From: Patescibacteria group bacterium
GTDB taxonomy: Bacteria > Patescibacteriota > Patescibacteriia > JAHJFT01
Assembly (NCBI GenBank): GCA_028710985.1
Contig: JAQTTB010000001.1
Coordinates: forward strand, 655,073-719,072
Reading direction: 5' to 3'
DNA: 64,000 nucleotides
The notes beneath the pieces are model-generated. The model saw only the letters and a list, made by a program, of their open reading frames with translations. It did no database searches and was not told where the DNA came from. The translations under genes and the position numbers were made by a program. Shown piece by piece: positions 3,636-61,931 of the stretch; position 1 is the stretch's first letter, and each line of letters begins with the position of its first letter.

Positions 3636-3667
3636 GTTGTAGGAATTAGGAAGTTAGCTTGTAGGTT

Positions 3668-4558: not shown

Positions 4559-4655
4559 CGAGCCTGCCTACCGGCAGGTAGGCTTGTAGCTTTTTAGCTT
4601 GTAGGAATTTTCCATTCGCAAGCTACCAGCTACAAGCTACCAGCTACAAGCTAGT

Positions 4656-5432
4656 ATGATTCCATATCTTCACCTAACAACCTTTAATCTCGGACCGATT
4701 CAATTTCAAGTCTGGGGAACGTTCGTCGCCCTGGGATTTATTGCCGCGATTTTATGCGCCTGGGTTTTTCTCAAACGCCGCGGTCTGAATCACGAAGCCG
4801 TCTGGGATATCAGTTTCGCCGGCCTTGTCGGCGCGGTCATCGGCGCCCGGCTCGGGCACGTGTTTTTTTACGAATGGCATTATTACGCCGCTCACGCGGC
4901 CGAGATATTTTACGTCTGGAAGCCGGGATATTCTTTTTTCGGCGGCTTGTTCGGAGTGATCGCCGGGTATTTGATTGTCGCCCGGATCAAGAAACTGAAT
5001 TATTTTAAATACGCGGACGCGCTGGCTTTCGCCGCGCCTCTCGGCATCGCGGTCGGGCGAATCGGGTGTTTTTTGATAAATGACCATCCGGGCATACGCA
5101 CCGCGTCGTTTCTGGGCGTTCATTATCCGCTCGGCGACCGTTTTGACCTCGGCCTCCTGGAATCCGCGGCCGCCGCGATCCTGTTCATCATTTTTATTAT
5201 GCTCGCGCGCAAAATGCGGACAACCGGTTTTTTCACCGGGCTGTTTCTTATTATGTATGGCGCAGTGCGTTTTGGCCTTGATTTTTTGCGGATCTGGGAC
5301 GGTCCGGGTGCGGAGGCGCGCTACGCGGGCCTCACACCGGCTCAATATTTTTCCATTGCAATTTTTATTATTGGAATCGCGTTGTTATTAAAACTGCGCG
5401 TAAAAAAAATAAATGTCCAAACACAAGCCTAA
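4656..5432 (+). CDS. lgt: Prolipoprotein diacylglyceryl transferase
   Basis: Lgt signature GRIGCF, multi-pass membrane topology, 258 aa. Confidence 0.85.
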   Translation: MIPYLHLTTFNLGPIQFQVWGTFVALGFIAAILCAWVFLKRRGLNHEAVWDISFAGLVGAVIGARLGHVFFYEWHYYAAHAAEIFYVWKPGYSFFGGLFGVIAGYLIVARIKKLNYFKYADALAFAAPLGIAVGRIGCFLINDHPGIRTASFLGVHYPLGDRFDLGLLESAAAAILFIIFIMLARKMRTTGFFTGLFLIMYGAVRFGLDFLRIWDGPGAEARYAGLTPAQYFSIAIFIIGIALLLKLRVKKINVQTQA

Positions 5433-35235: not shown

Positions 35236-35247
35236 ATCATCTCATTC

Positions 35248-35272
35248 GTCATTCCCGCGAAGGCGGGAATCC
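35248..35272. repeat. GTCATTCCCGCGAAGGCGGGAATCC palindromic mini-repeat (single copy)
   Basis: Perfect 8-bp stem ATTCCCGC/GCGGGAAT with a GAAG loop. It is the core form of the repeat family also seen at 14472, 15824 and 47806. Confidence 0.7.
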
Positions 35273-35314
35273 AGGTGCAATAATCGGGCAGAAAGTATTT
35301 AAAAATAAAATATT

Positions 35315-36773: not shown

Positions 36774-37670
36774 CTATTCGGGGTCGGCTTCGCCTAGGCA
36801 GTGCTTGCGTAGGTAGGCGAGAAGGTCTTGCAATGCGGCCGGTGATGCTGCCCGTGACACTACTTTATCGTCGGCTTCAATTATCAGCTTCCTGACGCTG
36901 TCCTTGTCGCCGCGTGCATGAGCCGCGAGAACACCATCCATCCATCCGGTAAAAGAAAATGGAAATACTTCTCCGCAGCTTTTCATGGTGGTGTATATCA
37001 GACCGAATGTGATGGGATCCAGCGGAATCACGCCCGGCTTGGGCTCGGCCTTGGTCATCTGGTTCAGCAGGTCGTACAGGATGTCGGTGATTTTCGCGGC
37101 ATCCTTGTATGGTGTCGATGACGTATCCCAATACCGGGGGTTTACCTTCGGTAAGAACTCGGCTAATATCTCATCTCGATGCCATGGATGGCCGCACAAG
37201 GCGGTATCGAGGATGGCGCAGAGTCCGTCCATGAAACGAATCTTCAGTTCCTTGTCCCTCTGATCATTGATGGTTAATACGATCTTGAGAAGGTCGCGGA
37301 GCGGGATGTGGCCGGCCGGTGCAGACGGGTTGGCCGCCACGGCAGTTTCCGTCCCGGGGAAGCGTCCGATGGCGTTGAAGATCTTCTGGAGCAGGGCGGC
37401 GGGGATCGGATCGCCCTTGTGCGCGCCCTCGCGTGAGACCAGATTCTCATCCTGGTCGGTGTCAACGGCGAGCCGGTTCTCAACCGACTTCCGGTCGCCG
37501 ACCATGAACTCGGCGATGGAGATTTCCACCTTGTCGCGGTTGCCCTGGCGGCTTCCGCTCTTGGTGACGCGGAAGTAAGGATTGCCCTGGGCGTCGCAGT
37601 TTTCCTTTGAAACCTGCAGGGCATAGAGACGGGCGGTCTCTTCGGGGTTGAGGTCGATTCTCAAAAACAT
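36774..37670 (-). CDS. Hypothetical protein, paralog 1 of a tandem pair
   Basis: 298 aa. The C-terminal ~90 aa align with the 37874-38512 product (AEPKPGVIPLDP ... AYLRKHCLGE versus AEPKPTAIPLTAD ... AHLRKHCLGE). GC-rich. Confidence 0.55.
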   Translation of the reverse strand: MFLRIDLNPEETARLYALQVSKENCDAQGNPYFRVTKSGSRQGNRDKVEISIAEFMVGDRKSVENRLAVDTDQDENLVSREGAHKGDPIPAALLQKIFNAIGRFPGTETAVAANPSAPAGHIPLRDLLKIVLTINDQRDKELKIRFMDGLCAILDTALCGHPWHRDEILAEFLPKVNPRYWDTSSTPYKDAAKITDILYDLLNQMTKAEPKPGVIPLDPITFGLIYTTMKSCGEVFPFSFTGWMDGVLAAHARGDKDSVRKLIIEADDKVVSRAASPAALQDLLAYLRKHCLGEADPE

Positions 37671-37873: not shown

Positions 37874-38512
37874 CTATGTGGTTTTGCCGGGCATGGGTTC
37901 GGCGGGCGTCTCGGTCTCGCCCAGGCAGTGCTTGCGCAGGTGGGCGACGATCAGTTTGAAATAGAGATCATCCTTCAGCTCGCTGTTCAGAGCACCGGCC
38001 CGATCTAACTGAAGGCGCAGGTCAGGGTCATTCTCGTAATAGCGTACAATGATTCCAACCAGCCAAGCCCCAAAAGTATGGGGATGATACTCGAGCGGCA
38101 GTGTGCTGATGGCGTGAAGCGCGCGTACGAAGTCAGCGGTGAGCGGAATAGCAGTCGGCTTGGGCTCGGCCGTGGCCGCGTTTTCGTCCGCCACGGATTC
38201 TGGAAAGATATCCAGCGCGTCAGCGAGCTTGCGCCAGTATACGGGCGGAAGCGGCTTGAAGAGCATGACTTCCTTATCTTCCTCCCGATACCCGACCGCC
38301 AGCTCTAAGGTGACTGAGTATTCCAGAAGTTTGCCCCTCTTCACGCTTAGAACGTCCACGAACTTGGTTAATGGGAAGTTATATTCGCTGAAGCTCTTTC
38401 CGGCCGGCGCGGGCGGCTCTCGGTTCATGGCCATGTCCACGAATTTGAGAAGCTCGGCCAGCTGTTTGCCCGTGAGTTCCTTTTTAACGATCATGGTTTC
38501 TCCGTCTGGCAT
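37874..38512 (-). CDS. Hypothetical protein, paralog 2 of a tandem pair
   Basis: 212 aa, homologous over its full length to 36774-37670. It has the same promoter-like upstream motif and a terminator paralogous to that of paralog 1. Confidence 0.55.
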   Translation of the reverse strand: MPDGETMIVKKELTGKQLAELLKFVDMAMNREPPAPAGKSFSEYNFPLTKFVDVLSVKRGKLLEYSVTLELAVGYREEDKEVMLFKPLPPVYWRKLADALDIFPESVADENAATAEPKPTAIPLTADFVRALHAISTLPLEYHPHTFGAWLVGIIVRYYENDPDLRLQLDRAGALNSELKDDLYFKLIVAHLRKHCLGETETPAEPMPGKTT

Positions 38513-45014: not shown

Positions 45015-45043
45015 TTGACAATATAAAAAGTTTATATTATAGT
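45015..45043 (+). promoter_or_regulatory. Sigma70-type promoter of clpB
   Basis: TTGACA (45015-45020), 17-nt spacer, TATAGT (45038-45043). Confidence 0.55.
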
Positions 45044-47747: not shown

Positions 47748-47805
47748 ATCTTTTCCATTACCGAAACGTTAATCAGATAGGCATGGCGGTTGAATTCAAG
47801 CTACT

Positions 47806-47882
47806 GGATTCCCGCTTTCGCGGGAATGACGATGAGCGGTGTATTCCGTTTTTTTCGTCATTCCCGCGCAGGCGGGAATCCA
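47806..47882. repeat. Inverted pair of GTCATTCCCGCG(N)AGCGGGAATCC mini-repeats
   Basis: Copy d1 at 47806-47830 is on the minus strand. Copy d2 at 47857-47882 is on the plus strand. They are separated by a short spacer ending in T7. Confidence 0.7.
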
Positions 47883-47960
47883 CAGTGTAAAAGCACATTA
47901 TCTCTAAATAATTTATAGTCAGACATAAAGTACGAAATGAGAGAGTCTCTCACTATCGTC

Positions 47961-47989
47961 TTGACACGGCGAGTAAAACGTGATAATAT
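47961..47989 (+). promoter_or_regulatory. Sigma70-type promoter for a small transcription unit
   Basis: TTGACA, 17-nt spacer, TAATAT. Confidence 0.55.
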
Positions 47990-48070
47990 TTCATGTGGTC
48001 AAGATGCGGCACTACTCCTTGGTGTATGGGGACGCCCAAGAAAGATAACCCCAAACCACTGGAGGAACCC

Positions 48071-48259
48071 ATGACTCGTTTCAAAGGTCTGTCCCTTGAG
48101 GAAAGACGGAGACTATACCTCCGGCCTATGTCTGAGCGGGCGGCCGAACAATTACGAAATGCGAGTCTTTCCTCTGCATGGCTCTGGCGATATCGTCGGG
48201 ACCCTTTGGAGGAGGAAAAAGAGGAGCAATCCTCTGAATCCGAATCCAAACCCGAGTAA
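48071..48259 (+). CDS. Small hypothetical protein (62 aa) with its own promoter, SD and terminator
   Basis: SD GGAGG 7 nt upstream of the ATG. Product MTRFKGLSLEERRRLYLRPMSERAAEQLRN ... with an acidic, serine-rich tail. Intrinsic terminator at 48287-48317. Confidence 0.35.
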   Translation: MTRFKGLSLEERRRLYLRPMSERAAEQLRNASLSSAWLWRYRRDPLEEEKEEQSSESESKPE

Positions 48260-48374
48260 CCTCATCCGACCGTCTTCCCCGACCTCGCGCGTCACCCCTG
48301 GGTGGCGTGCTTTTTTTATTGCCAAATTTGGAGAATTTTGCTATAATTTAAGCGCAAATTATTAAAAACTTATC

Positions 48375-49784
48375 ATGAAAACGATGCTAAAAATCGCCAA
48401 TTTTACAGTAATAATTTCATTTTTATTGCTGCCCCTCTCCCCGGCTCTGGCCGCGGAATTCAATCCCAATTATGTCATCAGTGACGACGATATGACCGAG
48501 TACTCCTCAATGGGGCTGGTTGATGTTCAGAATTTCCTGGAGAGAAAAAGCAGCTATCTTGCCAATTATGTTACCCTGGACACGGATGGTTCAATCCGCC
48601 GCGCTTCGGAAATTATTTTCCGCATCGCCAATTTGTATTTTATAAATCCGCAGTTTCTTCTCGCACTGATTCAAAAGGAGCAGAGCCTGGTTGAAGACCC
48701 GGCACCGACCGAGAAGCAGCTTGACTGGGCCGCCGGTTACGGAGTTTGCGACGACTGCACCACCGACGATCCGGCCATTCAGCGCTGGCGTGGTTTCGCC
48801 AAACAGGTCCGTTCGTCGGCCATGCAGTTCCGCGAAGGTTATCTCACCGACCTCGCTCAGATCGGCCGTACCAACGCCGGCCTGGCGCCTGGCGAAGTGA
48901 CTGTAATTGACGGTCAGCTCGTGACGCCGGTCAATAACGCAACCGCGTCGCTTTATTCCTACACCCCGCATCTTGAGGGCAACGAGAACCTGTGGCGCAT
49001 CTGGCAGCGCTGGTTTACTTTAATGTATCCGGACGGCTCCTTGCTTCAGGCCCAGGGGGAAGATGGTGTTTGGCTGATTCAGTACGGGCAAAAACGCGCT
49101 TTCCTGTCAAAGGCGGCTTTGCTCTCAAGATATGACATCGGTAAAATTATTTCCGTATCCCAATCCGACCTTGACCGTTACGAAGACGGAAAACCCATTA
49201 AATTCGCCAACTATTCGCTGATCCGGTCGCCGCGCGGCACCGTGTTTCTTATTGACGGTGACAACCGGCGCGGCATTGTGTCCTGGGAAACGTTCCGCGC
49301 CATCGGCTTTAATGCGGATGAAATCATCAATGTGACCTGGGAGGATATCAACATGTACGCAGAGGGAGATGCCATTACCATGGAAAGTGTTTATCCGAGC
49401 GGCGCGCTTTTGCAGAACAAATTGACCGGCGGAGTATATTGGGTGCAGGATGCGAAAAAATATCCAATTTGGTCACGTGAAATTTTGAAGGCAAATTATC
49501 CTTATTATACGATCACGGCGGTTTTACCGGCTGAGCTTGATAAATACGAAACCCAGACGCCGGCCAAGTTCCGCGACGGCGAACTCGTTAAAGCCAAAGG
49601 CGATCCCGGAGTCTACGTTGTGAGCGAGGGCGCGATTCGTCCGATTCCTTCAGCCGAAATATTCGAGCGCATGGGATACAAGTGGGAAAATATCATTGAA
49701 ACTTCGGCTAAAGCCCTCTCCCTTCACCCAATCGGCGAACCTTTATATCTGATTACCGGCGAAGTTGAAACAGCCGGCCAATAA
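48375..49784 (+). CDS. Secreted hypothetical protein with internal repeats
   Basis: N-terminal signal peptide (ends LSPALA-AE). Repeated G-x-x-G-V-[YW] ... I/V motifs in the C-terminal half. Confidence 0.5.
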   Translation: MKTMLKIANFTVIISFLLLPLSPALAAEFNPNYVISDDDMTEYSSMGLVDVQNFLERKSSYLANYVTLDTDGSIRRASEIIFRIANLYFINPQFLLALIQKEQSLVEDPAPTEKQLDWAAGYGVCDDCTTDDPAIQRWRGFAKQVRSSAMQFREGYLTDLAQIGRTNAGLAPGEVTVIDGQLVTPVNNATASLYSYTPHLEGNENLWRIWQRWFTLMYPDGSLLQAQGEDGVWLIQYGQKRAFLSKAALLSRYDIGKIISVSQSDLDRYEDGKPIKFANYSLIRSPRGTVFLIDGDNRRGIVSWETFRAIGFNADEIINVTWEDINMYAEGDAITMESVYPSGALLQNKLTGGVYWVQDAKKYPIWSREILKANYPYYTITAVLPAELDKYETQTPAKFRDGELVKAKGDPGVYVVSEGAIRPIPSAEIFERMGYKWENIIETSAKALSLHPIGEPLYLITGEVETAGQ

Positions 49785-49785
49785 A

Positions 49786-49905
49786 CCCGTCCCTGCGGCA
49801 ATGCCGCAGGGCACCAGGGCGGGTTTTTTAGACAAAGTGTCGGCTCCGCCGACCTTATCAAGCATAATTGCCCCGATAGTCATCGGGGCATCTAATAAAT
49901 CTTTA
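49786..49905 (+). repeat. Copy 1 of a ~120-bp composite element (terminator hairpin plus two further hairpins); inverted partner at 60636-60760
   Basis: Near-identical reverse complement of 60636-60760. Contains cccgtccctgcggcaatgccgcagggcaccagggcgggtttttt, then gtcggctccgccgac and gccccgatagtcatcggggc hairpins, and ends ~20 nt before the 49908 start codon. Confidence 0.7.
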
Positions 49906-49907
49906 CT

Positions 49908-50699
49908 ATGATTGTTTTTGCATCTTTCTGTCCCCATCCCCCCATTCTTATCCCGAGCATCGGCAAGGAAAATACCGTTAAGCTGAAAAAAACTGCCGAT
50001 GCATATGGTCAGCTTGAACAGGGTTTTACTGCCAGCCGGCCGGATACAGTGGTAATCGTTAGTCCCCATGGTATTGTCTACAAAGACGCTTTTTCAATAA
50101 ATCTTTGTGATAATTTTTTCGGCGGATTTGAAGAATTCGGAGATTTTTCAATAAAAACCGAATACCCTGCCGATTATTTGACGATTGAACGCGCTCAACG
50201 CCATTTGCGGAACCGTAAAATCGCCGTCAAACTTGATACATGCGCCAAGCTTGATCACGGCGTGACCGTGCCGCTTTATCTCCTGGCAAAGAATTGGACG
50301 AATTTTAAACTAGTGCCGATTGTCTATTCCGGACAAGGATTGAAAAGCCATTTTGAATTCGGTCAGGAGCTCAAGGAAGCGCTCGCCGAATCTAACGATC
50401 GGGTTGCCGTGATTGCTTCCGGCGACCTGTCGCACTCGCTCACGAGCGATGCCCCGGCCGGTTACAATGAATTCGGAAAACAGTTTGACGACAAGATTCT
50501 TGAGCTGGTGGCGAACCAAAACAGCGCCGCCATGATTGGCATTAATGAAAAAATGATCGACGGCGCGCATGCATGCGGCCTTCGTTCGCTCGTAATGCTT
50601 TTCGGGATATTGCACGGAACCGAATGCCAGTCCGAAATACTTTCCTACGAAGCGCCATTTGGCGTCGGATATCTCGTGTGCCGCTTTAAATTTGCTTAA
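49908..50699 (+). CDS. AmmeMemoRadiSam system protein B (Memo1-like, class III extradiol dioxygenase fold)
   Basis: 263 aa matching the MEMO1-family pattern (SPHG ... DLSH). Confidence 0.7.
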   Translation: MIVFASFCPHPPILIPSIGKENTVKLKKTADAYGQLEQGFTASRPDTVVIVSPHGIVYKDAFSINLCDNFFGGFEEFGDFSIKTEYPADYLTIERAQRHLRNRKIAVKLDTCAKLDHGVTVPLYLLAKNWTNFKLVPIVYSGQGLKSHFEFGQELKEALAESNDRVAVIASGDLSHSLTSDAPAGYNEFGKQFDDKILELVANQNSAAMIGINEKMIDGAHACGLRSLVMLFGILHGTECQSEILSYEAPFGVGYLVCRFKFA

Positions 50700-50701
50700 C
50701 T

Positions 50702-52597
50702 ATGTATGCCAAGGTAGCGCCTAGCTATCGCATGCCTCTTGAACTGGACGTTTTTGATTATCTGGTTCCAAGAGAACTGGAATCCGTGCTCAAGCCGGGT
50801 TTTTTTGTAATGGTGCCATTTCGTGGCCGGTTGATCCAGGGCGTTGTTTGGGAATTAAGCGGCACGCCGTCGATTAAAAGCGAAAAGATTTTGTCAATCC
50901 ATTCTGCGATTACGCGGCAGGAGCTGTTTGATGAATCGGATTTAAAACTTCTTGAATACGCGGCCGAATATTATCTTGTATCCAAGGGCGCGTTGGTAAA
51001 GGCCGTGATACCGGATGCGCCTAAGCGATTCCGGGAGGAGCCTTTAAATGATTCACGCGGCAGCCAAAATATTGCCGCCGGATTCGGCCCATCCCCTCTC
51101 CTTGATCGCCTGGCCGTCAAACCGGCTTTGTTTTTATATCAGGACAAGCGTCGGATGCTTGAAGAAATCAGAAATTGGATTGCTGATAAATTCAGCGCGA
51201 AAAATCAATTTTTGATTCTTGAACCGCAGATTAAATCCATTGAACAAACCGCGGCTTACCTCAATGAATCATTCCCTGGCGCGGTCGCGAGTCTGCACAG
51301 CGGCCTTTCCAGAGGGTCGTATTGGAAAAACTGGATTGATTTCGCGTGCGGAAAAAAATCAATCCTGGTAGCGTCCCGCGTTGGAATATTCGCGCCGTCG
51401 GCGAATTTAACGGCCATATTCGTTATTGATGAAGAAATGCCGGATTTTAAGCAATATGATCAAAATCCGCGCTATGATGCCCGGTCGCTCGCTCTCAAAG
51501 TCAGCGAATCACGGAAAATACCGGCCGTCTTTTGTACCGGCGCGCCTCGGCTAGAAACATGGCATGCCGCAAAGAACCAGGGCTGGTTGGTTATTGAGCA
51601 GAAGGGCAAGGATTCAGCCGTTTCAACGATTGACTTGAAGTTTGAAAGGCAGACGCATAATTTTTCCCTGCTGTCCGACCGTTTGCTTCAGGCCGGGCTG
51701 GGGGCTTTACAAAATCATCAAAAAGTGCTACTTTTCTTTAATCGCCGCGGCTGGGCAACGAGCACGATTTGCCGCGATTGCGGTTATGCCTATTTGTGCC
51801 CTGAATGCCAAATTCCGCAGATTGCGCACAAAAACCGCCTGGTATGCCATCATTGCGGCGAGAGCCGCGATATTCCCCTCGCCTGCGACAAATGCGGCGG
51901 AACAAATATTAAGATGGTCGGCGCCGGTACCGAAACGCTCGAACGGGAAATAAAAGAATCATTTGGAAATTACCGCATTCTCCGCCTGGATAAAGATGTT
52001 GACACGCCGATCCGTTACAATCTGGACGACTATGACGTTATTCTGGGCACCAATTATCTTGTCAAAGAATATTACGGCGAAATTCTGCAACAAAAAATCG
52101 GCGTGGTGGGAATAATCAATTCGGATAATTTATTCAACATTCCCGACTTTCGTTCAACCGAAAGGGCGTGGCAGGAAATCCGGAAGATTAGGAACCTAGC
52201 CGGCGCGCTTGGCGCGGAGATATTTATTCAGACAATGAGGCCGGATAATAAGGTTCTACAAAGCGTTGATTCGCCGGATAATTTTTTCCGAGACGAAATC
52301 GCGGCGCGTCAGTCATTTAATTACCCCCCATTCACCAAGCTCATTAAGCTGATCATTCAGAATACAAACGAAGAATTGGCCCAAGGTTTGGCGCAAAGGA
52401 TTTATGCCGAGCTTGGCGCACTCGTCCAAAAAGGCGCAGAAATACTCGGGCCGTACCCGGCAACTCCGAAAAAAATCCGCGGCCAGTTCAGGATTCTTAT
52501 CACTCTTAAGATTCCACGCGATATGGACAAGAATTTTCTAAAAACATACGCAAATGATATAATTATCGATGTTGACCCGGAATTTATACTAAGTTAA
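50702..52597 (+). CDS. priA: Primosomal protein N-prime (PriA)-like, with a degenerate Walker A
   Basis: PriA architecture with an N-terminal 3'-BD, a zinc-binding CRDCGYAYLCPECQ ... CHHCG ... CDKCGG region and a C-terminal domain. The position of GxGKT reads LFLYQDKRR. Confidence 0.7.
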   Translation: MYAKVAPSYRMPLELDVFDYLVPRELESVLKPGFFVMVPFRGRLIQGVVWELSGTPSIKSEKILSIHSAITRQELFDESDLKLLEYAAEYYLVSKGALVKAVIPDAPKRFREEPLNDSRGSQNIAAGFGPSPLLDRLAVKPALFLYQDKRRMLEEIRNWIADKFSAKNQFLILEPQIKSIEQTAAYLNESFPGAVASLHSGLSRGSYWKNWIDFACGKKSILVASRVGIFAPSANLTAIFVIDEEMPDFKQYDQNPRYDARSLALKVSESRKIPAVFCTGAPRLETWHAAKNQGWLVIEQKGKDSAVSTIDLKFERQTHNFSLLSDRLLQAGLGALQNHQKVLLFFNRRGWATSTICRDCGYAYLCPECQIPQIAHKNRLVCHHCGESRDIPLACDKCGGTNIKMVGAGTETLEREIKESFGNYRILRLDKDVDTPIRYNLDDYDVILGTNYLVKEYYGEILQQKIGVVGIINSDNLFNIPDFRSTERAWQEIRKIRNLAGALGAEIFIQTMRPDNKVLQSVDSPDNFFRDEIAARQSFNYPPFTKLIKLIIQNTNEELAQGLAQRIYAELGALVQKGAEILGPYPATPKKIRGQFRILITLKIPRDMDKNFLKTYANDIIIDVDPEFILS

Positions 52598-52598
52598 T

Positions 52599-53075
52599 AT
52601 GCCAGTCTTAAAAATCTTTACTCACCCGAGCGCTTACTTACGAACCAACAGTTCGCGCGTCAAGAAGAAATATTTGGAAATCGATGAAGCCCAGCGGTTT
52701 ATTGATTCTATGATTGAGACAATGCACGCGGCTAAGGGTATCGGTCTCGCCGCTCCGCAGGTGGGTAAAAACATTAGAATAATCGTTGCCATGGACGGCG
52801 AAAAGCCGCTCGTATTTATTAATCCAAAACTTTATCGCAAGTCTTTGCGTAAGGTTGAGGTGGAGGAAGGCTGCCTCTCCCTGCCCGGCGTCTGGGGCAT
52901 GGTAAAACGCCACGCCGCGTTGTCGGTTTCCGCTACGGACCGGAAGGGTAAAAAATTCCGTATGCGCGCCAAGGGCGGCATGCTCCCAATCATCTTGCAG
53001 CACGAAGTAGATCATTTAAACGGTATTTTGTTTATTGATCGCATTAAGAAATGTTCGTCTCTCCCAACGAAATAA
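52599..53075 (+). CDS. def: Peptide deformylase
   Basis: GIGLAAPQVG, EGCLSLPG and HEVDHLNG motifs. Confidence 0.9.
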   Translation: MPVLKIFTHPSAYLRTNSSRVKKKYLEIDEAQRFIDSMIETMHAAKGIGLAAPQVGKNIRIIVAMDGEKPLVFINPKLYRKSLRKVEVEEGCLSLPGVWGMVKRHAALSVSATDRKGKKFRMRAKGGMLPIILQHEVDHLNGILFIDRIKKCSSLPTK

Positions 53076-53077
53076 AC

Positions 53078-54025
53078 ATGGTAGAATCCACAAAACCATT
53101 ACGTGTAATATTTATGGCCACGCCGGCATTCACCCTGCCGGTGTTTGAGGTTTTGACGCAGGACAAGCGATTTGAGATTATCGCGGTTTATACCCAGCCG
53201 GATAAGCCAGCCGGACGCCACGCCATTCCCCTGCCCCCGGCCGTAAAGCTCCGGGCATCGCGCCATGATATACCGGTCTTTCAGCCCGAGAAGTTCAATA
53301 ATCCGACCACCATCCGCCAGATCGAACTTCTGGAGCCGGATATAATTCTTGTTTTTGCCTACAGCCACTTTTTGCCCAAGGAGGTGCTCGCCATCCCCAA
53401 GTTCGGCTGCGTGAACATCCATCCTTCGCTTCTGCCGCGCTGGCGCGGTCCGTCGCCGGTCGCCTTTGCTATATTGAACGGCGATAAAGAAACTGGCGTA
53501 ACTTTCATGCTCATGAATGAAAGGATGGACCAGGGGCCCGTAATTTTGCGATTTCGCGCGCCCATCGCTCCGGCAGATAACCGAGAAGATCTGACCGCCC
53601 GCCTGTCTGTTTTGGCCGCAGAAAGATTACCGTCCGTATTGATTGACTGGACCGAAGGAAAAATCAAAGCACAGCCGCAGGAAGAAAATAATGCCACATA
53701 TTCAAAACTTCTGTCGCGTCCGGACGGCAGGATTGACTGGAAAAAAACCGCGGTGGAGATTGAACGCCAAATTCGTGCCTTCTCGCCGTGGCCGGGCGCG
53801 TTTTGTTCCTGGGGCGGCAAACAGCTGAAGATATTGAAGTCTTCCATTGATTCAACGGCGACACTTCCGCCCGGTCAGGCGCGTATCGCAAATAAAAATT
53901 TGATTGTCGGAACCGCTCGCCAAGATATAAAAATTCTTGCCCTTCAACCCGAGGGCAAGAAACCCATGAATATTAAAGATTTTTTGAATGGCGGTCCGAA
54001 GATTGACGGCTCGATATTATCCTGA
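53078..54025 (+). CDS. fmt: Methionyl-tRNA formyltransferase
   Basis: N-terminal formyltransferase domain (HPSLLPRWRG) plus a C-terminal domain. The start was set at ATG 53078, abutting the def stop. Confidence 0.9.
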   Translation: MVESTKPLRVIFMATPAFTLPVFEVLTQDKRFEIIAVYTQPDKPAGRHAIPLPPAVKLRASRHDIPVFQPEKFNNPTTIRQIELLEPDIILVFAYSHFLPKEVLAIPKFGCVNIHPSLLPRWRGPSPVAFAILNGDKETGVTFMLMNERMDQGPVILRFRAPIAPADNREDLTARLSVLAAERLPSVLIDWTEGKIKAQPQEENNATYSKLLSRPDGRIDWKKTAVEIERQIRAFSPWPGAFCSWGGKQLKILKSSIDSTATLPPGQARIANKNLIVGTARQDIKILALQPEGKKPMNIKDFLNGGPKIDGSILS

Positions 54026-55480
54026 CGTCCGATCGCGTTCCAGATAGCACGACATGAGGAGAAGGTAGCCGATTCCCAGCGGATGGTTGAGATACGGCGT
54101 AAAAAAATTCGTAATAAATAAAACAACAAGCCCGATCGTAAGGGCCAGCGGCATGACATTGTCGCTGTTTTTTAAATATGCTACGATTCCGGTTTTTCCC
54201 AACCGTACCATTAGCCAGAGATAGGCCGCGATTCCGAGTATGCCGATTTTATACCAGATGTCCAAAAGCCCCCACTCCATGGCTGAAGTGGTATATTCGC
54301 CGGTCGGATATTCGGCGCGAACGCGCGGGTCGTTTGAAATATAGGTAACCTGGGCGCCAAAACCCTGTCCCAGAAAAGGTTCGTTGATTATCCCCTGCCA
54401 CAATACGGGCAGGAGATTCCAACGGCTGGAAGCCGCGGCTTCGGCTCCGATATCCGCTCGTTCAAGAAGCATCGTGCCAAGTGAGCCGGCCCCCGGCGTG
54501 GGAATCGGAAATTTAACCACGGCGGCGATTAGCATGAATCCAATGCAAAGTGCGAGTAGCCCGAGCGTGGCGCGGCCGATAATCCGTAAAAAAGATATTT
54601 TCCTAATCAGGGCGAAAATAAAAATGATTGGCAGAGAAACCGCGGCGCCAAGCCAAAAGCTGCGCGACAAACTAATTAAAACAACCGCCGCGCCGACCGA
54701 CATGAATATAATCAGCAGTTTTTTTTCCAGTGGATTGAGCTTGTCGCGGTGAAGAATAAGAATCGCGACAAGTATGGAGAGCCCAATCAATGGATAAATT
54801 TGTGATTGGAAAAATACGCGAAAAATATTTGACATCATGAGCGTAATTTCACCAACGCCGGTGTTGCGGATCCAGTGGTAAAGAGGCCAGACGGCCCACT
54901 CAATGTTGTGTGAGAAGAAGTAAAGAACCAGCATTGTTTTTGCGGAAAGCCAGATATAAGAGGCGGCCGCCGCGGTCCAGAGACGGTTCCAGGTATAATC
55001 ACCGCTAAGGAATTCATACCAGATCGGCAGATATAAGAAGAAAATATAGGCGTTAAAATCAAAAAATATATTTGATAATCCGTTTTTTCGAAGCAGGGCA
55101 TTAATAAGGCCGACGATTAGAAATGCAAAAAATATAAGATAAGGAACAAGAAACTTAGAGTGGAGAAACTTGATCCGGCGGGTCATGATAACACCGGTAA
55201 GCCATAGTGCGGCCATTATGCCAAAAATCACCATGCGGCCGGAAATCATGTAACCATTTATATCCATGTGAAAAAGATATCCCATGCCGCCGATAAAAAG
55301 TTCAATCGCGGATATTACCGCCGCGGTGCGCGGGTTGACCACGCCGACGCATGAAAATAGAACCGCAAGGGCAATAAAGCCCGCGATATTGAGATAATTT
55401 GGCGAATAATACAGAGCAAAAGAAACAATTTCAAAAGTTGCGATGTAGAGAATTACTGTCCAGAAAGTTTTTTTGTCCAT
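54017..55480 (-). CDS. O-antigen ligase/polymerase-like (Wzy/WaaL family) polytopic membrane protein
   Basis: About 12 transmembrane helices with a large periplasmic loop. The start was trimmed to MDKKTFWTVILY (ATG at 55480), abutting the upstream GT2 stop. Confidence 0.55.
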   Translation of the reverse strand: MDKKTFWTVILYIATFEIVSFALYYSPNYLNIAGFIALAVLFSCVGVVNPRTAAVISAIELFIGGMGYLFHMDINGYMISGRMVIFGIMAALWLTGVIMTRRIKFLHSKFLVPYLIFFAFLIVGLINALLRKNGLSNIFFDFNAYIFFLYLPIWYEFLSGDYTWNRLWTAAAASYIWLSAKTMLVLYFFSHNIEWAVWPLYHWIRNTGVGEITLMMSNIFRVFFQSQIYPLIGLSILVAILILHRDKLNPLEKKLLIIFMSVGAAVVLISLSRSFWLGAAVSLPIIFIFALIRKISFLRIIGRATLGLLALCIGFMLIAAVVKFPIPTPGAGSLGTMLLERADIGAEAAASSRWNLLPVLWQGIINEPFLGQGFGAQVTYISNDPRVRAEYPTGEYTTSAMEWGLLDIWYKIGILGIAAYLWLMVRLGKTGIVAYLKNSDNVMPLALTIGLVVLFITNFFTPYLNHPLGIGYLLLMSCYLERDRTSG

Positions 55481-55481
55481 A

Positions 55482-56351
55482 TTAAATTTTTGATTGGGTT
55501 CTTGGTTTGACGTGTAAAAAATTTGCGATATAAGCAAGCGCCATGCTTTTGGGTGAAAGAAGGGCAAGCAGTAGGTAGTCATAAATCGGATGATATAAAC
55601 GAAAATAAATAAGCATTCCCCGGATAAACTTTTTTTGCTTTGCCGGACTCGCGACTTGGGCAAAGCTCCTTCCCTCGTGGTGGACCACGCGGGTGGATGG
55701 AGTATAAAATATTTTCTTTCCGGCCAGGGCGGCTCGTTTGCACAAATCCACATCCTCCCACCAAAGTGGAAATTTTTCATTCCAGCTTCCAAATTGCCGG
55801 AATTCTCTCGATCGGCTGTAAACAAATGCGCCCATGATGTTTTCAACCGGCTGTTCAACGGAATAATCAAAATCTTTGGCAAGATAATTTTTGATTGCCG
55901 GCAGCCATGAGAACAGGTGATGCAATTTTAGCATTATTAAAGCCTGTGACCAAAAATCAGGTAGGCGTTTAATGTTGTTTTGGCGCGTTCCATCGCCATA
56001 TGTAAGTGTCGTAGTGGCGATGAATACATCAGGGTGGGAATCTATGAAAGCACGCATTTTGATAAGCGTATTTTCCGTAAATTCCATGTCAGGATTCATA
56101 AAAAGCACATGATCGCCCGCGGCTTTAGCCAGGCCCATGTTATTGGCTCTGGAGAAACCGGCATTAAAATCATTTGTAATGATTTTGACATTCGGGAATT
56201 CGGAACGGACCATTTCGGCCGTACCGTCGTGAGAATTGTTGTCAACAACGATAATTTCATATTCAACGTCCTGTGAATACGAAACTATGCTCGCGAGGCA
56301 CGCCTTGAGCAAATTTTTTACGTTCCAACTGACAATAATTACGGAAGTCAT
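55482..56351 (-). CDS. Family 2 glycosyltransferase
   Basis: VIIVSWN ... VVDNNSHD ... DxD-type GT-A motifs. Confidence 0.75.
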   Translation of the reverse strand: MTSVIIVSWNVKNLLKACLASIVSYSQDVEYEIIVVDNNSHDGTAEMVRSEFPNVKIITNDFNAGFSRANNMGLAKAAGDHVLFMNPDMEFTENTLIKMRAFIDSHPDVFIATTTLTYGDGTRQNNIKRLPDFWSQALIMLKLHHLFSWLPAIKNYLAKDFDYSVEQPVENIMGAFVYSRSREFRQFGSWNEKFPLWWEDVDLCKRAALAGKKIFYTPSTRVVHHEGRSFAQVASPAKQKKFIRGMLIYFRLYHPIYDYLLLALLSPKSMALAYIANFLHVKPRTQSKI

Positions 56352-57046
56352 GGCAGTTTATGTTTCTGTTTGATAATTTTTTCGGCAGCGCGGTATTTCT
56401 GCACCGAAGGAAGAAAACCAAAAAATTTCCAATACGCAAAGGACGGAAGCCATTCGCTCATATTGTGGCGATGGCGCGGCTTTATGGTAAATAAGACTTC
56501 GTCAATCCACCATCCCCTGTTTTTATTTTTAAGCATGGTAAGCCACAAATCCCAGTCCTGAAAGCGCGTGATATTCTCGTCAAAGCGCGGAAAATCAAAA
56601 CGTCGGATAAGCGAGGTGGTATGTATAAAATTCATGGCGCCAAGCCTTTTGTCGTTGAACGGAAAAAGTTTAAACAATTTAAAACCAAACCTGAATGAAC
56701 TATAGGCATAAGAATATTCCGGCCGATCTTTTAACGATTGCAACATGGCGTCAAGCATGTCAGGAGACATTTGGACGTCGGCATCGCAAAATATTACATA
56801 ATCTCCGGAGGATGCGTCAAATCCGCGGTTTCTCGCAGCATTGGCGCCGCGGTTTTCCTGGTTAATTAGTTTAATTTTGTTAAGATGCGGTGCAATCGCG
56901 GCGTCAAACGCGTCGGTAGAGCCGTCGTTGACGACGATAATTTCATAATCTGAAAAAGTCTGGCGATAAATCGAATCCAGGCAAGGCCCGATCTCCTCGC
57001 GATGATTAAATACAGGTATAATTATACTGATTACAGGTTTATCCAT
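56348..57046 (-). CDS. Family 2 glycosyltransferase
   Basis: ISIIIPVFN ... VVNDGSTD GT-A motifs. Confidence 0.75.
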   Translation of the reverse strand: MDKPVISIIIPVFNHREEIGPCLDSIYRQTFSDYEIIVVNDGSTDAFDAAIAPHLNKIKLINQENRGANAARNRGFDASSGDYVIFCDADVQMSPDMLDAMLQSLKDRPEYSYAYSSFRFGFKLFKLFPFNDKRLGAMNFIHTTSLIRRFDFPRFDENITRFQDWDLWLTMLKNKNRGWWIDEVLFTIKPRHRHNMSEWLPSFAYWKFFGFLPSVQKYRAAEKIIKQKHKLP

Positions 57047-58178
57047 ATGTATGGCCGCTCAGGAAAAGTCGTAATTTTTCGGTTTCTTTACGCCATTGAA
57101 AATCATTTTCGGCACGAACGCGGCCATTTTCACCGAGTGTTTTGGCCCATTCGCGGTCGGTCATTAAATCATTTATGGCCTGATAAATATCATTCGTATC
57201 GTTCGGATTCACCAGTAAACCGGTTTGCCGGTCAATCACCGCTTCTGGTACGCCGCCGCTCCTTCCGCCAACCACGGGCAAACCAAAAAGATTTGCCTCA
57301 AGATAGACCATGCCAAAGCCTTCCACGTCCGGTCCAATTTGGCGCGAAGGCAGGGCAAATACTTCGGCAATCGAATAAAACTTGCTCATGTCCTGGTCGC
57401 TTACACTGCCGGCGAATCGTACGAGATTATGAATTTTTAAATCATCAACAATTTTGGCGAGCCGGTTGATATCCGGGCCGTCGCCCACGATTACGTAGAT
57501 GATATCCTTAAATTTTTCGTAGAGGCGGGGCAGGCATTCCAGCACCTTATCAATCCCCTTTCGTTCAACTAAACGAGCCACGGAAAGTAGCACGCGCTTT
57601 TCGGAAAGACCATATTTTGCAACCACGTCGTAGGTTTCAATAGTTTCGCGGTTCGGTACAAATGCTGGGCAGGGATAAACAACCAAAACCTTGCTGTCGG
57701 GTACGCCGAGTCCACTGATTAAGCCGCGAGTGTACTCGCTATTTACCACGATTCCGGAAGCTTTATTCAGAATTTTTATCAAGCGCTGCTTTTTTTGGGG
57801 CGTCGCCTGAGCCTTGAGTATATCCAATCCATGGCAGAACACGGCATAGCGTAATTTAAGTGTTTGGTTCAGTCGATATGCGATATAGCCAACCGGCAGC
57901 ACGTGCGAAATATGCAACATCGTAATCTTGTGTTTTTTTACCAATGTTTTGACGCGAAAATAGAGCATCAGCCAGTGAGGCCAGATATAAGATGTCAGAA
58001 GATTGCCGCGCATGATTTTATACGCGCAGGTCGCGTCATATTCCTGTGAACCTTTTGTCTTCGGAGCGAGCACAAAAACCTTGTCGCTCGGCAGCCGCGA
58101 ATACAAATTCGCCAGATAGTTCGCAATTCCGCCTTTTTGCGGCGGAAACTCAAGAGTTATCAGCAGGCTCTTATCCAT
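57039..58178 (-). CDS. Family 4 (GT-B, group 1) glycosyltransferase
   Basis: C-terminal EGFGMVYLEANLFGLPVVG motif typical of GT4. Confidence 0.75.
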   Translation of the reverse strand: MDKSLLITLEFPPQKGGIANYLANLYSRLPSDKVFVLAPKTKGSQEYDATCAYKIMRGNLLTSYIWPHWLMLYFRVKTLVKKHKITMLHISHVLPVGYIAYRLNQTLKLRYAVFCHGLDILKAQATPQKKQRLIKILNKASGIVVNSEYTRGLISGLGVPDSKVLVVYPCPAFVPNRETIETYDVVAKYGLSEKRVLLSVARLVERKGIDKVLECLPRLYEKFKDIIYVIVGDGPDINRLAKIVDDLKIHNLVRFAGSVSDQDMSKFYSIAEVFALPSRQIGPDVEGFGMVYLEANLFGLPVVGGRSGGVPEAVIDRQTGLLVNPNDTNDIYQAINDLMTDREWAKTLGENGRVRAENDFQWRKETEKLRLFLSGHTYG

Positions 58179-58180
58179 GG

Positions 58181-59632
58181 TTAGGGATTATTTTTATTAA
58201 ATAATAGGCCGGTAATCTCCTTAACATCATTCTTGTCCCACCCCCGAACGATGTAGAGCACTAAGAAATAGACAATCGCACCAAGTGGAACGAGCAGAAT
58301 AAAGTGTAACTGTTCCTTGAGAGCGAGAATGACGATGGCCATAACGAGGCCGCTCAGAAATGTCTTGATAAAACATGAGAATATGGGACGCAGGCTAAAG
58401 CCGATATATTTTTTACCATAATAAATTCCGGCGACGGCCATGAACGTGAAGCTAATCAAGCCGGAAATTGCCGCGCCAACTGCAAAAAATCGTGGGACTA
58501 AAATTGCATTAAGAGCAACGTTGATGACCATCGTCGCGATCATGATTGCGGTTTTGGTTGTTTGGCGGTCGCATGCATTGAGTAGGGATCCGACCGGAAA
58601 ATCGACGAAGATGGCAAAGAGTACAAATATCAAAATTTGAAGCGGAAGGATTGAGTTAAAAAAATCCGGACCATAGAAAGCAATTACGATTTTATCCGCC
58701 AGCGCCCAGACGCCGAAACAAATTGGGATTGAAATGGCGCTCATGTATCTGACCGATTGCGTGAAAGTGTGAATAAGCTTTTCGCGGTTGAATTTCCAAT
58801 GCTCGGATAATACTGGATAGAGGCCGGCAACGAAAGCCATGGGAATAAACTGGAAAGCATAAGTTAGTTTGTAGGCGATGCTGTACCACCCCACATAAGC
58901 GTCGCCGGCAAGAAGTGAGAGTAATATAGAATCGATGTAGGAGTAAATTTTCACTGATACGCCGGCGATTGCAAACGGCAGGGCAATTTTAAAAGTCTTT
59001 CTCAAGAATGTAAAATCCAATTCCCACCGTGGCAAAATACCAGCGCGTTTTTTGAGCAGAAAGAGTACATAGATAATATGGAACAAACTTCCGGCAAGCA
59101 GGGCTAATATCAATATCGGCAGGGAGCGGTGAATTAGCAGAGAGGCGGTACCCAGTCCGACGATAATAATTTCGCAGATAAAAATTCCCAGGGCTTCGTA
59201 ACTCAGGATTTTTAAACCTCGGAAAATGCCATAAAACGTCATGTGAAATGAGTCGGCGACCATCACCAGGAGCGCGAGATAGACAAGCAGGGTGGTGAGG
59301 CTGTCGTATCCCATTATATTGATTACCACGGCGGCGACAATCGCGGTTGCCGCGGCCATAAAGAGCTTGATGCTGAAAATATTGTTGAGATATTTCGGTA
59401 TCAAACTGTGATCGCGGGCCGTTTCCCGGATAAGCACCGAATTAAGCCCAAAATCAACAAAAATGGAAAATATCGTGGTAAATGAGAGGGCGAGAAAATA
59501 TTTTCCCGTCCATTCCACGCCGACCATTCGCGCAATTAGGGCAAAATAGATGAATGCAAGTACTTTCTGCCCGATTGCCGCAAGGGTCAAATAGAATGTA
59601 TTTTTAGCAAGATTCGCCGCCATAATTACCAC
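58181..59632 (-). CDS. Wzx-type oligosaccharide flippase (MOP superfamily)
   Basis: 483 aa with about 12-14 transmembrane helices and a polysaccharide biosynthesis protein pattern. Confidence 0.7.
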   Translation of the reverse strand: MVIMAANLAKNTFYLTLAAIGQKVLAFIYFALIARMVGVEWTGKYFLALSFTTIFSIFVDFGLNSVLIRETARDHSLIPKYLNNIFSIKLFMAAATAIVAAVVINIMGYDSLTTLLVYLALLVMVADSFHMTFYGIFRGLKILSYEALGIFICEIIIVGLGTASLLIHRSLPILILALLAGSLFHIIYVLFLLKKRAGILPRWELDFTFLRKTFKIALPFAIAGVSVKIYSYIDSILLSLLAGDAYVGWYSIAYKLTYAFQFIPMAFVAGLYPVLSEHWKFNREKLIHTFTQSVRYMSAISIPICFGVWALADKIVIAFYGPDFFNSILPLQILIFVLFAIFVDFPVGSLLNACDRQTTKTAIMIATMVINVALNAILVPRFFAVGAAISGLISFTFMAVAGIYYGKKYIGFSLRPIFSCFIKTFLSGLVMAIVILALKEQLHFILLVPLGAIVYFLVLYIVRGWDKNDVKEITGLLFNKNNP

Positions 59633-59716
59633 TATTTTACACTAAATTTATAATAAATCCAAGCTTTCTAAATCAAAACCCCCGGCAACGCGGCCAGGGG
59701 TTTATGTTAATCAATT

Positions 59717-60253
59717 TTAGCGTTTGGACCATTGCGGGGCACGTCTGGCACGTTTGAGGCCAGGTTTCTTTCGTTCCTTAACGCGTGAATCACGCGTGAG
59801 AAATCCCGGTTTCTTAAGACTGGATTTTAATTCAGGATTAAGTGCAATAATTGATCGGGCGATGCCGAGTCTCACCGCTTCGGATTGGCCATGTTTGCCC
59901 CCGCCAGAAACCTTTGCGGTAATATCCACGCTCCCCTCAAGTCCGACAGTCTTTAGCGGATCATTGACGCAGATTTGCTGTGAAGCGACCGTGAAGTATT
60001 CAATCAAGGGTTTATCATTGATCGTGATGCTCCCCTTTCCCGGCTGGTAGAGTCGAACTTGCGCGATGGCGCATTTGCGTCGTCCGATAGCACGAATGTA
60101 TTTGCCGGATTTAGTGGCAGCAGCTTTTGACTCAGCCGGTTTTTCAATCTTTACATCTTCCTTTTTTAAAATTACCGGATGTTTTTTGACAGTTTTCCTT
60201 GGAGATTTAGCAGTGGTTTTAGTTGTTTTCTTTGTAGCTTTCTTCACTGGCAT
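59717..60253 (-). CDS. rpsI: 30S ribosomal protein S9 with a Lys-rich N-terminal extension
   Basis: C-terminal GGGKHGQSEAVRLGIARS ... LTRDSRVKERKK ... KRARRAPQWSKR. The N-terminal ~60 aa are lysine-rich. Confidence 0.9.
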   Translation of the reverse strand: MPVKKATKKTTKTTAKSPRKTVKKHPVILKKEDVKIEKPAESKAAATKSGKYIRAIGRRKCAIAQVRLYQPGKGSITINDKPLIEYFTVASQQICVNDPLKTVGLEGSVDITAKVSGGGKHGQSEAVRLGIARSIIALNPELKSSLKKPGFLTRDSRVKERKKPGLKRARRAPQWSKR

Positions 60254-60255
60254 AA

Positions 60256-60627
60256 TTATTTTGCTTTACCAAAAGTTATTCTTCGCAATCGAACGGTGCG
60301 GTAGCTGTTTTTCGGCAGCATTCGGGTAATTGTATTTTTAATAATTTTCTCAAATTGTCCGGTCGAAACAAGCGTTTTAAGAGGCATGGATTTCAAACCA
60401 CCCGGATAGAAAGTGTGATGCAGATATTGCTTTTGTTCTATTTTGTTGCCGGTAAATTTTAGCTTTTCGGCATTTACGATATGAACAAAGTCGCCGGCAT
60501 CAATATGAGGCGCATAATCCGGTTTGTGTTTGCCCTGCAGCAAAAAAGCCGCTTTGGAAGCAAGGCGTCCAACCGACTGGTCGGCGGCATCAAGTTTAAT
60601 TGTATTGCGGATAATTCTCTTCGCCAT
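60256..60627 (-). CDS. rplM: 50S ribosomal protein L13
   Basis: L13 pattern (LGRLAS ... HIDAGDFVHIVNAEKL ...), 123 aa, upstream of rpsI. Confidence 0.9.
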   Translation of the reverse strand: MAKRIIRNTIKLDAADQSVGRLASKAAFLLQGKHKPDYAPHIDAGDFVHIVNAEKLKFTGNKIEQKQYLHHTFYPGGLKSMPLKTLVSTGQFEKIIKNTITRMLPKNSYRTVRLRRITFGKAK

Positions 60628-60635
60628 ATTTATTA

Positions 60636-60760
60636 GTGGCCCCGATGACTATCGGGGCAATTATGTTTGATAAGGTCGGCGGAGCCGACACTTTTTCTAA
60701 AAAACCCGCCCTGATACCACGCGGCAAAGCCGCGGGGTCGGGTTTATTTAATCAGCTCAA
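60636..60760 (-). repeat. Copy 2 of the ~120-bp composite element, lying between rplQ and rplM
   Basis: Reverse complement of 49786-49905 with a few mismatches. Read on the minus strand it sits in the same position relative to the rplM start as copy 1 does to the 49908 gene. Confidence 0.7.
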
Positions 60761-61100: not shown

Positions 61101-61931
61101 TTATTTCTTTTTTGCAGTTTTCTTCGCAACTTTCTTTTTTGTAGATTTTTTTTCTTCTTTTTCCTCGGTCGTTACGGCTTCGGGTTCGGTAATTTCAGAT
61201 GGCTTTTCTTGCTCCAGAATAACCTGCTCGTGCGCTGGCGGTATGCCGCGCGTTTGAAGTACGGTGAAGTAGTCGAGCAAGATCGCAACGCTCTGATTGA
61301 CTGCCTCTTCCGGCGTGATGGTTCCGTCAGTTTCGATATTCATCACCAGCTTATCATAGTCGGTGATTTCACCGACGCGGGTATTTTCAACCTTAAATCC
61401 GACATTGAGAACCGGGCTGTATAGTGCGTCCATGGCAATATGACCGACCTCAAGGTTAGATTTATCGCGTTCCTCGATTGGCAGATAGCCGCGTCCGCGA
61501 TTAGCCATTATCTCCATTTCGAGAGCGGAATCCTTATCGGTTAATTCCGCAATATATAAATCATCATTGATAATTTCAATATCCGAGTTTTTTTCAATAT
61601 CCTTGGCTTTAACTACGCCGGCGCCCTTGGCCTTAATGACGAGCCTCACTGGCTCATCGGTAAATACTTTGAGCCGGAGCTGCTTCAGATTGAGAATAAT
61701 GCCCAATGCGTCCTCTTTGACGCCTTTAATTGGGCTAAATTCGTGTTGTACGCCCTTAATTTTAACGGCGTAACATGCAGCGCCGGGCAGGGATGATAGA
61801 AGGACCCTCCTTAATGCATTGCCCACGGTTGTACCATAACCCTGGAAGCAAGGTTCGACGGTCAAAACCGCGTCGTTCTTGCCGGTTCCCGGAGCTATGA
61901 TTATTTTATTTGGCAATAAAATCTCCTTCAT
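61101..61931 (-). CDS. rpoA: DNA-directed RNA polymerase alpha subunit (N-terminal domain; no recognisable alpha-CTD)
   Basis: Alpha-NTD pattern (IAPGTGKNDAVLTVEP ... GYGTTVGNALRRVLLSS). 276 aa ending in an EKKEKKSTKKKVAKKTAKKK tail. Confidence 0.85.
   Translation of the reverse strand: MKEILLPNKIIIAPGTGKNDAVLTVEPCFQGYGTTVGNALRRVLLSSLPGAACYAVKIKGVQHEFSPIKGVKEDALGIILNLKQLRLKVFTDEPVRLVIKAKGAGVVKAKDIEKNSDIEIINDDLYIAELTDKDSALEMEIMANRGRGYLPIEERDKSNLEVGHIAMDALYSPVLNVGFKVENTRVGEITDYDKLVMNIETDGTITPEEAVNQSVAILLDYFTVLQTRGIPPAHEQVILEQEKPSEITEPEAVTTEEKEEKKSTKKKVAKKTAKKK

Follow-up and report, generated by a model that had tools for sequence, protein, structure and literature searches.

A small hairpin-bearing repeat at two operon-internal junctions in a Patescibacteria genome

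How does a sequence that looks like a transcription terminator come to lie inside two operons, immediately before essential genes? This question is raised by a 64-kb stretch of DNA (hereafter the window) from a Patescibacteria bacterium, a member of the candidate phyla radiation (CPR). Two copies of a 120-nt element, named A (+ strand) and B (- strand) here and numbered in window coordinates, are found upstream of a LigB/Memo-like gene and of rplM, respectively. An earlier reading based on the DNA letters (the sequence-only reading) proposed that they might be a shared terminator and leader, possibly an L13-leader-like autoregulatory structure, or the ends of an ancient inversion. Our results make it probable that A and B are copies of a small non-coding, non-autonomous insertion element that is SPRITE/bcr1-like and carries an intrinsic-terminator-like hairpin.

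Position and structure of the two copies

A repeat search identified a single long inverted repeat in the window, whose arms at 49780-49900 and 60628-60748 were 121 nt long and 90% complementary. Base-by-base comparison of copy A (49780-49899, + strand) with copy B (60629-60748, - strand) aligned 120 nt of each without gaps and with 12 mismatches, which confirmed the near-perfect inverted repeat of about 120 bp described in the sequence-only reading. Eight mismatches were at element positions 11-35, which belong to the inner terminator hairpin, and four were in the other 85 nt. The longest run that was identical between A and B was 28 nt. Sub-patterns of 25-26 nt from the element, searched with up to 3 mismatches, did not reveal a third site in the window (0.00 expected by chance).

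Each copy spans the complete intergenic spacer and has the same sense as both of its neighbor genes, so that the orientation relative to the genes was the same for A and B, as noted earlier. Copy A is located between an open reading frame (ORF) of 469 aa (stop codon at 49782-49784) and the LigB/Memo-like gene (ATG at 49908), and copy B is located between rplQ (stop codon at 60744-60746) and rplM (ATG at 60625-60627). The 5' end of the element is 2 nt upstream of the TAA stop codon of the preceding gene in both cases, while the distance from its 3' end to the downstream ATG is 8 nt for A and 1 nt for B. Moreover, both copies start and finish with the direct repeat AATAAA. The left AATAAA (49780-49785 in A and 60743-60748 in B) includes the TAA stop codon of the 469-aa ORF or rplQ and, in A, is also the A-tract of the first hairpin. 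The right AATAAA is at 49894-49899 in A and at 60629-60634 in B. The left-end sequence before the hairpin is AATAAACCCG, and the right-end sequence is CTAATAAA. The 120 nt contain no plausible ORF. The peptide shared by two spurious ORFs, which had been regarded as an artefact of the repeat, is indeed the antisense translation of the element.

In the 5'-to-3' direction, the element opens with an A-tract, which is followed by a two-tier GC hairpin and a T-tract; two short perfect palindromes come next, and the end is AU-rich. Three hairpins were predicted by RNA folding of each copy, with z values of -6.1 for A and -3.9 for B. Hairpin 1 is two-tiered and GC-rich, is closed by AAA/UUU and is followed by U6; together with its T6 run it is found at 49783-49829 (+) in A and at 60699-60745 (-) in B. 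In A, the outer stem is formed by AAACCCGT paired with GCGGGTTT, and the inner stem-loop is CCCTGCGGC-AAT-GCCGCAGGG. Relative to A, the inner stem of B shows a compensatory change from T-A to C-G. Hairpin 2 has 6 bp (GUCGGC-UCC-GCCGAC in RNA, GTCGGC-TCC-GCCGAC in the DNA of A) and is located at 49839-49853 (+) in A and at 60675-60689 (-) in B. Hairpin 3 has 8 bp (GCCCCGAU-AGUC-AUCGGGGC in RNA, GCCCCGAT-AGTC-ATCGGGGC in the DNA of A) and is located at 49870-49889 (+) in A and at 60639-60658 (-) in B. A GC-rich stem-loop directly followed by a U-tract, which characterizes intrinsic terminators, was present in A and B, and the 5' module of both copies is, by sequence and predicted fold, a textbook intrinsic terminator. 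The terminator-like 5' part and the three hairpins of the sequence-only reading agree with these results. Intrinsic terminators are in native use in this host; for instance, the position of the clpB terminator is conserved between the window and its relative L105.

Empty junctions in relatives and breaks in assemblies

Pfam searches verified the genes that had been named on both sides of the element (LigB/Memo, PriA, Def and Fmt as well as L13 and S9). On the + strand, the 469-aa ORF, whose function is unknown, is followed by the genes for the LigB/Memo-like protein, PriA, Def and Fmt. On the - strand, the genes for S13, S11, S4, RpoA and L17 are followed by copy B and then by those for L13, S9, a flippase, three glycosyltransferases and a Wzy-like protein. 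The two gene blocks converge near 54.0 kb.

Site A was compared with the corresponding sites of L105, L106 and L107, which are from one species, and of L115, which is from a second species; the proteins of these relatives are 60-69% identical. In all four, synteny is identical and only 3-5 nt separate the 469-aa ORF from the Memo gene. The junction is GGTAAT TAA TAT ATG in L105, L106 and L107, and GAA TAA TATCT ATG in L115. Similarly, the rplQ-rplM spacer is 4 nt in L108 and 1 nt in L109, and in about 40 Patescibacteria loci of GTDB its length was estimated at about -4 to 47 nt, compared with 116 nt in the window. The relatives without the element possess the order clpB, 469-aa ORF, Memo, priA, def and fmt, converging on Wzy...flippase-rpsI. 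Given that the gene order is the same but the junctions are 1-5 nt in the relatives, comparison of these sequences indicates that both spacers of the window are derived, having arisen through insertion of the same small repeat element at operon-internal junctions. In addition, the start of a contig from an 87% relative (L104, Logan SRR12594517, positions 1-30) falls exactly at AATAAAGAATAACT-ATG upstream of the Memo gene. This start might hint at a filled/empty polymorphism at the same target, and a strain single-nucleotide polymorphism 30 nt downstream would give an equal break.

The empty junctions also bear on the suggestion that both operons share a cis-regulatory RNA, such as an autoregulatory one resembling the L13 leader. 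In favor of this, copy B is directly upstream of rplM and is highly structured. However, the element is absent from the relatives, in which rplM begins 1-4 nt after rplQ, and the same element precedes an unrelated operon in the window. Moreover, Rfam, searched in gathering and E-value modes, offered no known RNA family for the element. No match was found in the window at the gathering thresholds, and the E-value mode returned unrelated, far-sub-threshold matches, which were different for A and B. The suggested leader function was therefore not borne out, and we give it next to no weight.

Assemblies provided a second line of evidence. In the Logan k=31 assemblies of three samples, contigs were 100% identical to the window, and they always broke inside the element. 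The contig with the 469-aa ORF ended at 49809/10, the internal contig extended from 49832 to 60658 and the contig with rplQ ended at 60665. The de Bruijn graph was simulated under three models, which were the window alone, one extra copy of the element and an inversion allele. Because A and B are identical over at most 28 consecutive nt, no break was expected from the window alone. With one additional copy, the predicted breaks fell at exactly 49809, 49832, 60658 and 60665. This modelled third copy combines the left part of A (49780-49861) with the right part of B (60694-60629) and has other flanks. The shared segments begin at the first base of the left AATAAA (49780) and end at the last base of the right AATAAA, with the predicted copy matching B up to exactly 60629. 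Thus, the breakpoints are strong indirect evidence for the presence of at least three copies and for AATAAA...AATAAA as the unit. The predicted copy differs from A at 3 positions on the right and from B at 9 positions on the left, which suggests a simple history of the copies.

The same simulations are relevant to the possibility that the 10.7-kb segment between A and B was inverted, with the repeats as its end-points or substrates. In favor of this, the inverted repeats measure 120 nt, share 90% identity and bracket two convergent gene blocks. However, the simulated inversion allele placed the breaks at 49861, 49834 and 60694 and failed to give the observed ones, and the longest identical run between the copies is just 28 nt. 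Furthermore, GC skew showed neither a switch across the segment nor a terminus between the copies. Finally, the relatives L105 and L115, which are free of the element, share gene order and orientation on both sides. Because the gene order is unchanged in genomes without it, the element does not mark an inversion, and the ancient inversion considered in the sequence-only reading is very improbable.

Diverged family members and expression of downstream genes

When the element's antisense translation was made into a profile and searched against 1.84 billion protein representatives, it matched two tiny ORFs, P0260 and P0261, on the contigs L116 and L117/L118, which contain diverged members sharing the left module, i.e., the two-tier hairpin and palindrome 2. 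The member in L116 (AATAAACCCGACCCTGCGCTCTTGGCGCAGGGTATCAGGGCGGGTTT...ATCGGCTCCGCCGAT; - strand, 5142 to about 5005) shares 76% identity with A across 74 nt, as counted by hand on the alignment. It is bounded by AATAAA, with a stop codon 45 nt before it and the next gene at a distance of about 500 nt. The member in L117/L118 (AGTAAACCCCTCCCCGCGGCAAGACCGCGGGGCATCAGGGCGGGTTT...TGCGGCTCCGCCGCT) is located in a divergent spacer upstream of recO, and in L117 it is bounded by GTAAA. The earlier description of each copy as abutting an operon start thus holds for A and B, which are directly before an ATG, but not for the copy in L116 or that in the divergent spacer of L117. In L117 (2460-2700, - strand), a second unit stands in tandem behind the family member, and GTAAA parts the two. 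This second unit is without the segment between two GGGGCAT sites and is an internal-deletion derivative.

In the alignment of the four sequences, 93.5% of the cells pair and 4 pairs are changed on both sides, whereas slid controls gave 0-2. Two of these both-side changes are in the inner stem and two are in hairpin 2, so that the hairpins show compensatory changes across four family members. The blocks AAACCC, CAGGGCGGGTTT and CGGCTCCGCCG are invariant across the four members, as is AAA...TTT. This degree of sequence conservation exceeds what a generic terminator needs. When about 0.95-1.0 Mb of collected loci were searched with nhmmer and with a covariance model, only A, B and the L116 member were retrieved, and blastn against phages and plasmids gave no match.

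Several results weigh against the assignment of A and B to an insertion element. First, no terminal inverted repeats were found when the left end (AATAAACCCGTCCC...) was compared with the reverse-complemented right end (TTTATTAGATGCCCCG...), and the sole inverted repeats in the element are its internal hairpins. Second, no transposase or recombinase was detected among the genes of the window by Pfam searches of every sizeable ORF. Third, the AATAAA end repeats might be a target-site duplication or a plain part of the element; the empty sites, which come only from the 60-69% relatives, are compatible with a 6-bp target-site duplication as well as with none. Fourth, two copies are seen directly in this genome, and the third is derived from assembly breakpoints. 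Fifth, exact-pattern scans revealed no further copies. An exact 23-mer had no match in the GTDB species genomes, four pattern scans of IMG/VR had no match, and the 19 loci found with the hairpin-3 pattern in JGI metagenomes were hairpin-only chance matches. Sixth, neither of the two distant members shares the right-hand part significantly; for the right-hand part of L116 against A/B, 81 of 500 shuffles scored as well. Seventh, a sigma-70 consensus scan found a promoter in neither A nor B. Finally, the T6 run is confined to the window copies, with TTT in its place in L116 and L117; because of this difference, termination may not be the conserved function of the family.

If A and B are copies of a non-autonomous insertion element, its spread might involve (A/G)TAAA motifs, either as sites of insertion or as partners in recombination, and the mobilizing enzyme would be encoded outside the window. 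The shared orientation of the copies could then be explained because the asymmetric (A/G)TAAA motif often overlaps TAA stop codons on the sense strand. The genes downstream of A (priA-def-fmt) and B (rplM-rpsI) are essential, and therefore the element must permit their expression. This might be achieved in two ways. The terminator-like hairpin might merely attenuate transcription, with read-through supplying the downstream genes. Alternatively, transcription might restart at a weak internal promoter, TCGGCT-17-CATAAT, in which case the new mRNA would have hairpin 3 at its 5' end, followed by an AU-rich leader of the type typical of this genome.

The CATAAT of this hypothetical weak promoter was read by eye as the best -10-like hexamer and is located at 49863-49868 (+) in A and at 60660-60665 (-) in B. 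The best promoter that could be read by eye in the element matches the consensus at 8 of 12 positions and has a poor -35 hexamer (TCGGCT). Real operon promoters of this genome, such as those at 45015, 48319 and 63838, match at 11 of 12 positions, and the one at 48319 (TTGCCA-17-TATAAT) is conserved in L105. Given that real operon promoters are near consensus and that the element has none such, attenuation with read-through is slightly more likely than restart. The CATAA(T/A) sequences of L116 and L117, which vary in position, were also considered as support for a promoter. They were dropped, as they are outside or at the edge of the elements.

A more far-reaching version of this proposal, which we regard as possible but rather doubtful, is that the element is a stop-codon-seeking mobile cassette of CPR bacteria. 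Such a cassette would insert at (A/G)TAAA overlapping TAA stop codons and would bring both a terminator and its own restart signal. The latter would consist of a weak promoter, a hairpin stabilizing the 5' end and an AU-rich region for initiation, as befits a genome free of Shine-Dalgarno motifs. If so, operons could be cut into new transcription units without polar damage, even in a ribosomal-protein super-operon.

The placement of A and B might also be explained without dedicated transposition. A composite terminator/promoter cassette that evolved in the host, comparable with PeSL, might have been transferred as a copy from one intergenic site to another through gene conversion, by homologous or microhomology-mediated recombination, and kept because it insulates upstream transcription and restarts downstream transcription. 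Consistent with this explanation, each copy exactly fills the spacer from stop to start codon and is co-oriented with the genes, CATAAT is found in both copies and the AATAAA ends could act as microhomology. Moreover, the 70 nt downstream of the T-run are more conserved between A and B (4 mismatches) than the hairpin region (8 mismatches), and terminator/promoter cassettes of the PeSL type have been documented (PMC4122927). However, the low promoter score of the element compared with that of the real operon promoters argues against a cassette selected for restart. Members found elsewhere have no T6, and their positions are either distant from start codons or within a divergent spacer. Similarly, the part conserved across genomes is the hairpin and palindrome 2 rather than the putative promoter. 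A host-evolved cassette is thus unlikely, and the insertion element remains the preferred explanation of A and B.

Several features of the host relate to transcription and translation. Housekeeping gene starts in the window have no Shine-Dalgarno motifs and are preceded by AU-rich leaders (for instance, AAATAATTT-ATG). In many gene pairs, the gap measures 0-5 nt, which suggests coupled or S1-type initiation. The RpoA polypeptides of the window (61101-61931, - strand), L108 (1805-2671) and L109 (8867-9700) are 276-288 aa long and contain only the N-terminal and insert domains. Pfam detects no alpha C-terminal domain (alpha-CTD) in them, and the recognition of UP elements by the alpha-CTD may therefore be absent in this lineage. 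Ribosomal protein S9 of the window (59717-60253, - strand) has 178 aa, of which about 56 aa form an N-terminal extension before the Pfam domain; its counterparts in relatives have 176-197 aa.

The window also contains repeats unrelated to A and B. A second hairpin repeat family, TCGTCATTCCCGC-N4-GCGGGAATCC, has 3 copies (35243-35275, 47800-47830 and 47853-47885), compared with 0.09 expected, and looks REP-like. Two of these copies are mutually inverted in the spacer between clpB and the 469-aa ORF (47748-48374), where Logan contigs break at 47853-47857. This spacer has 628 nt, compared with 107 nt in L105, and the extra DNA of about 500 nt holds both hairpin repeats. It also contains an ORF of about 62 aa (48071-48259, +) with no Pfam match and with its own terminator. 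This ORF has a near-consensus promoter (TTGACA-17-TAATAT at 47961) and, different from the host genes, a strong GGAGGA Shine-Dalgarno motif. The extra DNA looks like a foreign insert. Elsewhere, an inverted repeat of 34 nt (3609-3642 and 4623-4656), which is 82% complementary and rich in AGCTTGTAGG units, brackets a 156-aa ORF (4088-4558) without a Pfam family. Finally, the neighboring ORFs at 36774-37670 (-) and 37874-38512 (-) have no Pfam family, share DNA stretches that are 82-86% identical and look like tandem paralogues.

Comparison with known repeat elements

Small interspersed repeats are hardly described in the reduced genomes of Patescibacteria, and full-text literature searches for such repeats in Patescibacteria returned nothing. 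Here, two ancestral operons were split by the element directly before essential genes, one of them at the rplQ-rplM junction, which is otherwise invariant. The element offers a concrete and testable case of how a terminator-bearing repeat is tolerated inside operons, and such a repeat may rewire transcription units in organisms with minimal regulation. In practical terms, repeats of this element fragment k-mer assemblies and create spurious ORFs.

[quoted passage not shown] Different from the present element, MITEs possess terminal inverted repeats that are related to those of an insertion sequence (IS) element. A classical MITE was rejected because these defining repeats are missing. For REP/REPIN or IS200/IS605-derived elements, a Y1 (RAYT/TnpA) transposase and strand-specific insertion would be expected; no such gene was found in the window, and A and B are on opposite strands without a GC-skew switch between them.

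The PeSL of T4-type phages are short, repeated intergenic terminator/promoter cassettes that serve as portable recombination points (PMC4122927, PMC2839356). Similar to PeSL, the element begins with a terminator stem-loop and, in A and B, is just upstream of the next gene, and it would be a functional analogue if a promoter were present. Different from PeSL, which have a recognizable early promoter and reside in phage genomes, the element resides in a bacterial chromosome, and no consensus promoter follows the stem-loop in A or B.

The repeats bcr1-bcr18 of the Bacillus cereus group are non-autonomous and 100-400 bp long. Their mobility is linked to AT-rich TTTAT, and a mechanism resembling site-specific recombination is proposed for them (PMC6542083, citing Okstad 2004 and Kristoffersen 2011). 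The reverse complement of TTTAT is ATAAA, and the present element is bounded by AATAAA or GTAAA. This likeness of motifs is a resemblance only, as sequence and host phylum are different and the copy number here appears low.

The closest in kind is SPRITE of Streptococcus pneumoniae (PMC3049150), although no relationship in sequence is expected because the phyla differ. Both are shorter than 200 bp, non-coding and interspersed, and both have as their core a long hairpin between an A-tract and a T-tract, which in A and B is AAA, the two-tier hairpin and TTTTTT. Neither has substantial terminal inverted repeats or a known transposase partner, and both are found near the 3' ends of genes. Their placement is different, however. 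SPRITE is enriched between convergent genes and has been argued to be disruptive between co-transcribed genes (PMC3049150), whereas A and B are inside operons, between co-directional genes and directly upstream of essential genes. The L117 member is between divergent genes, and only the L116 member is just after the end of a gene. Moreover, the present element adds two palindromes and the AATAAA direct repeats. Thus, the element is a new family within the known class of bacterial small interspersed repeats.

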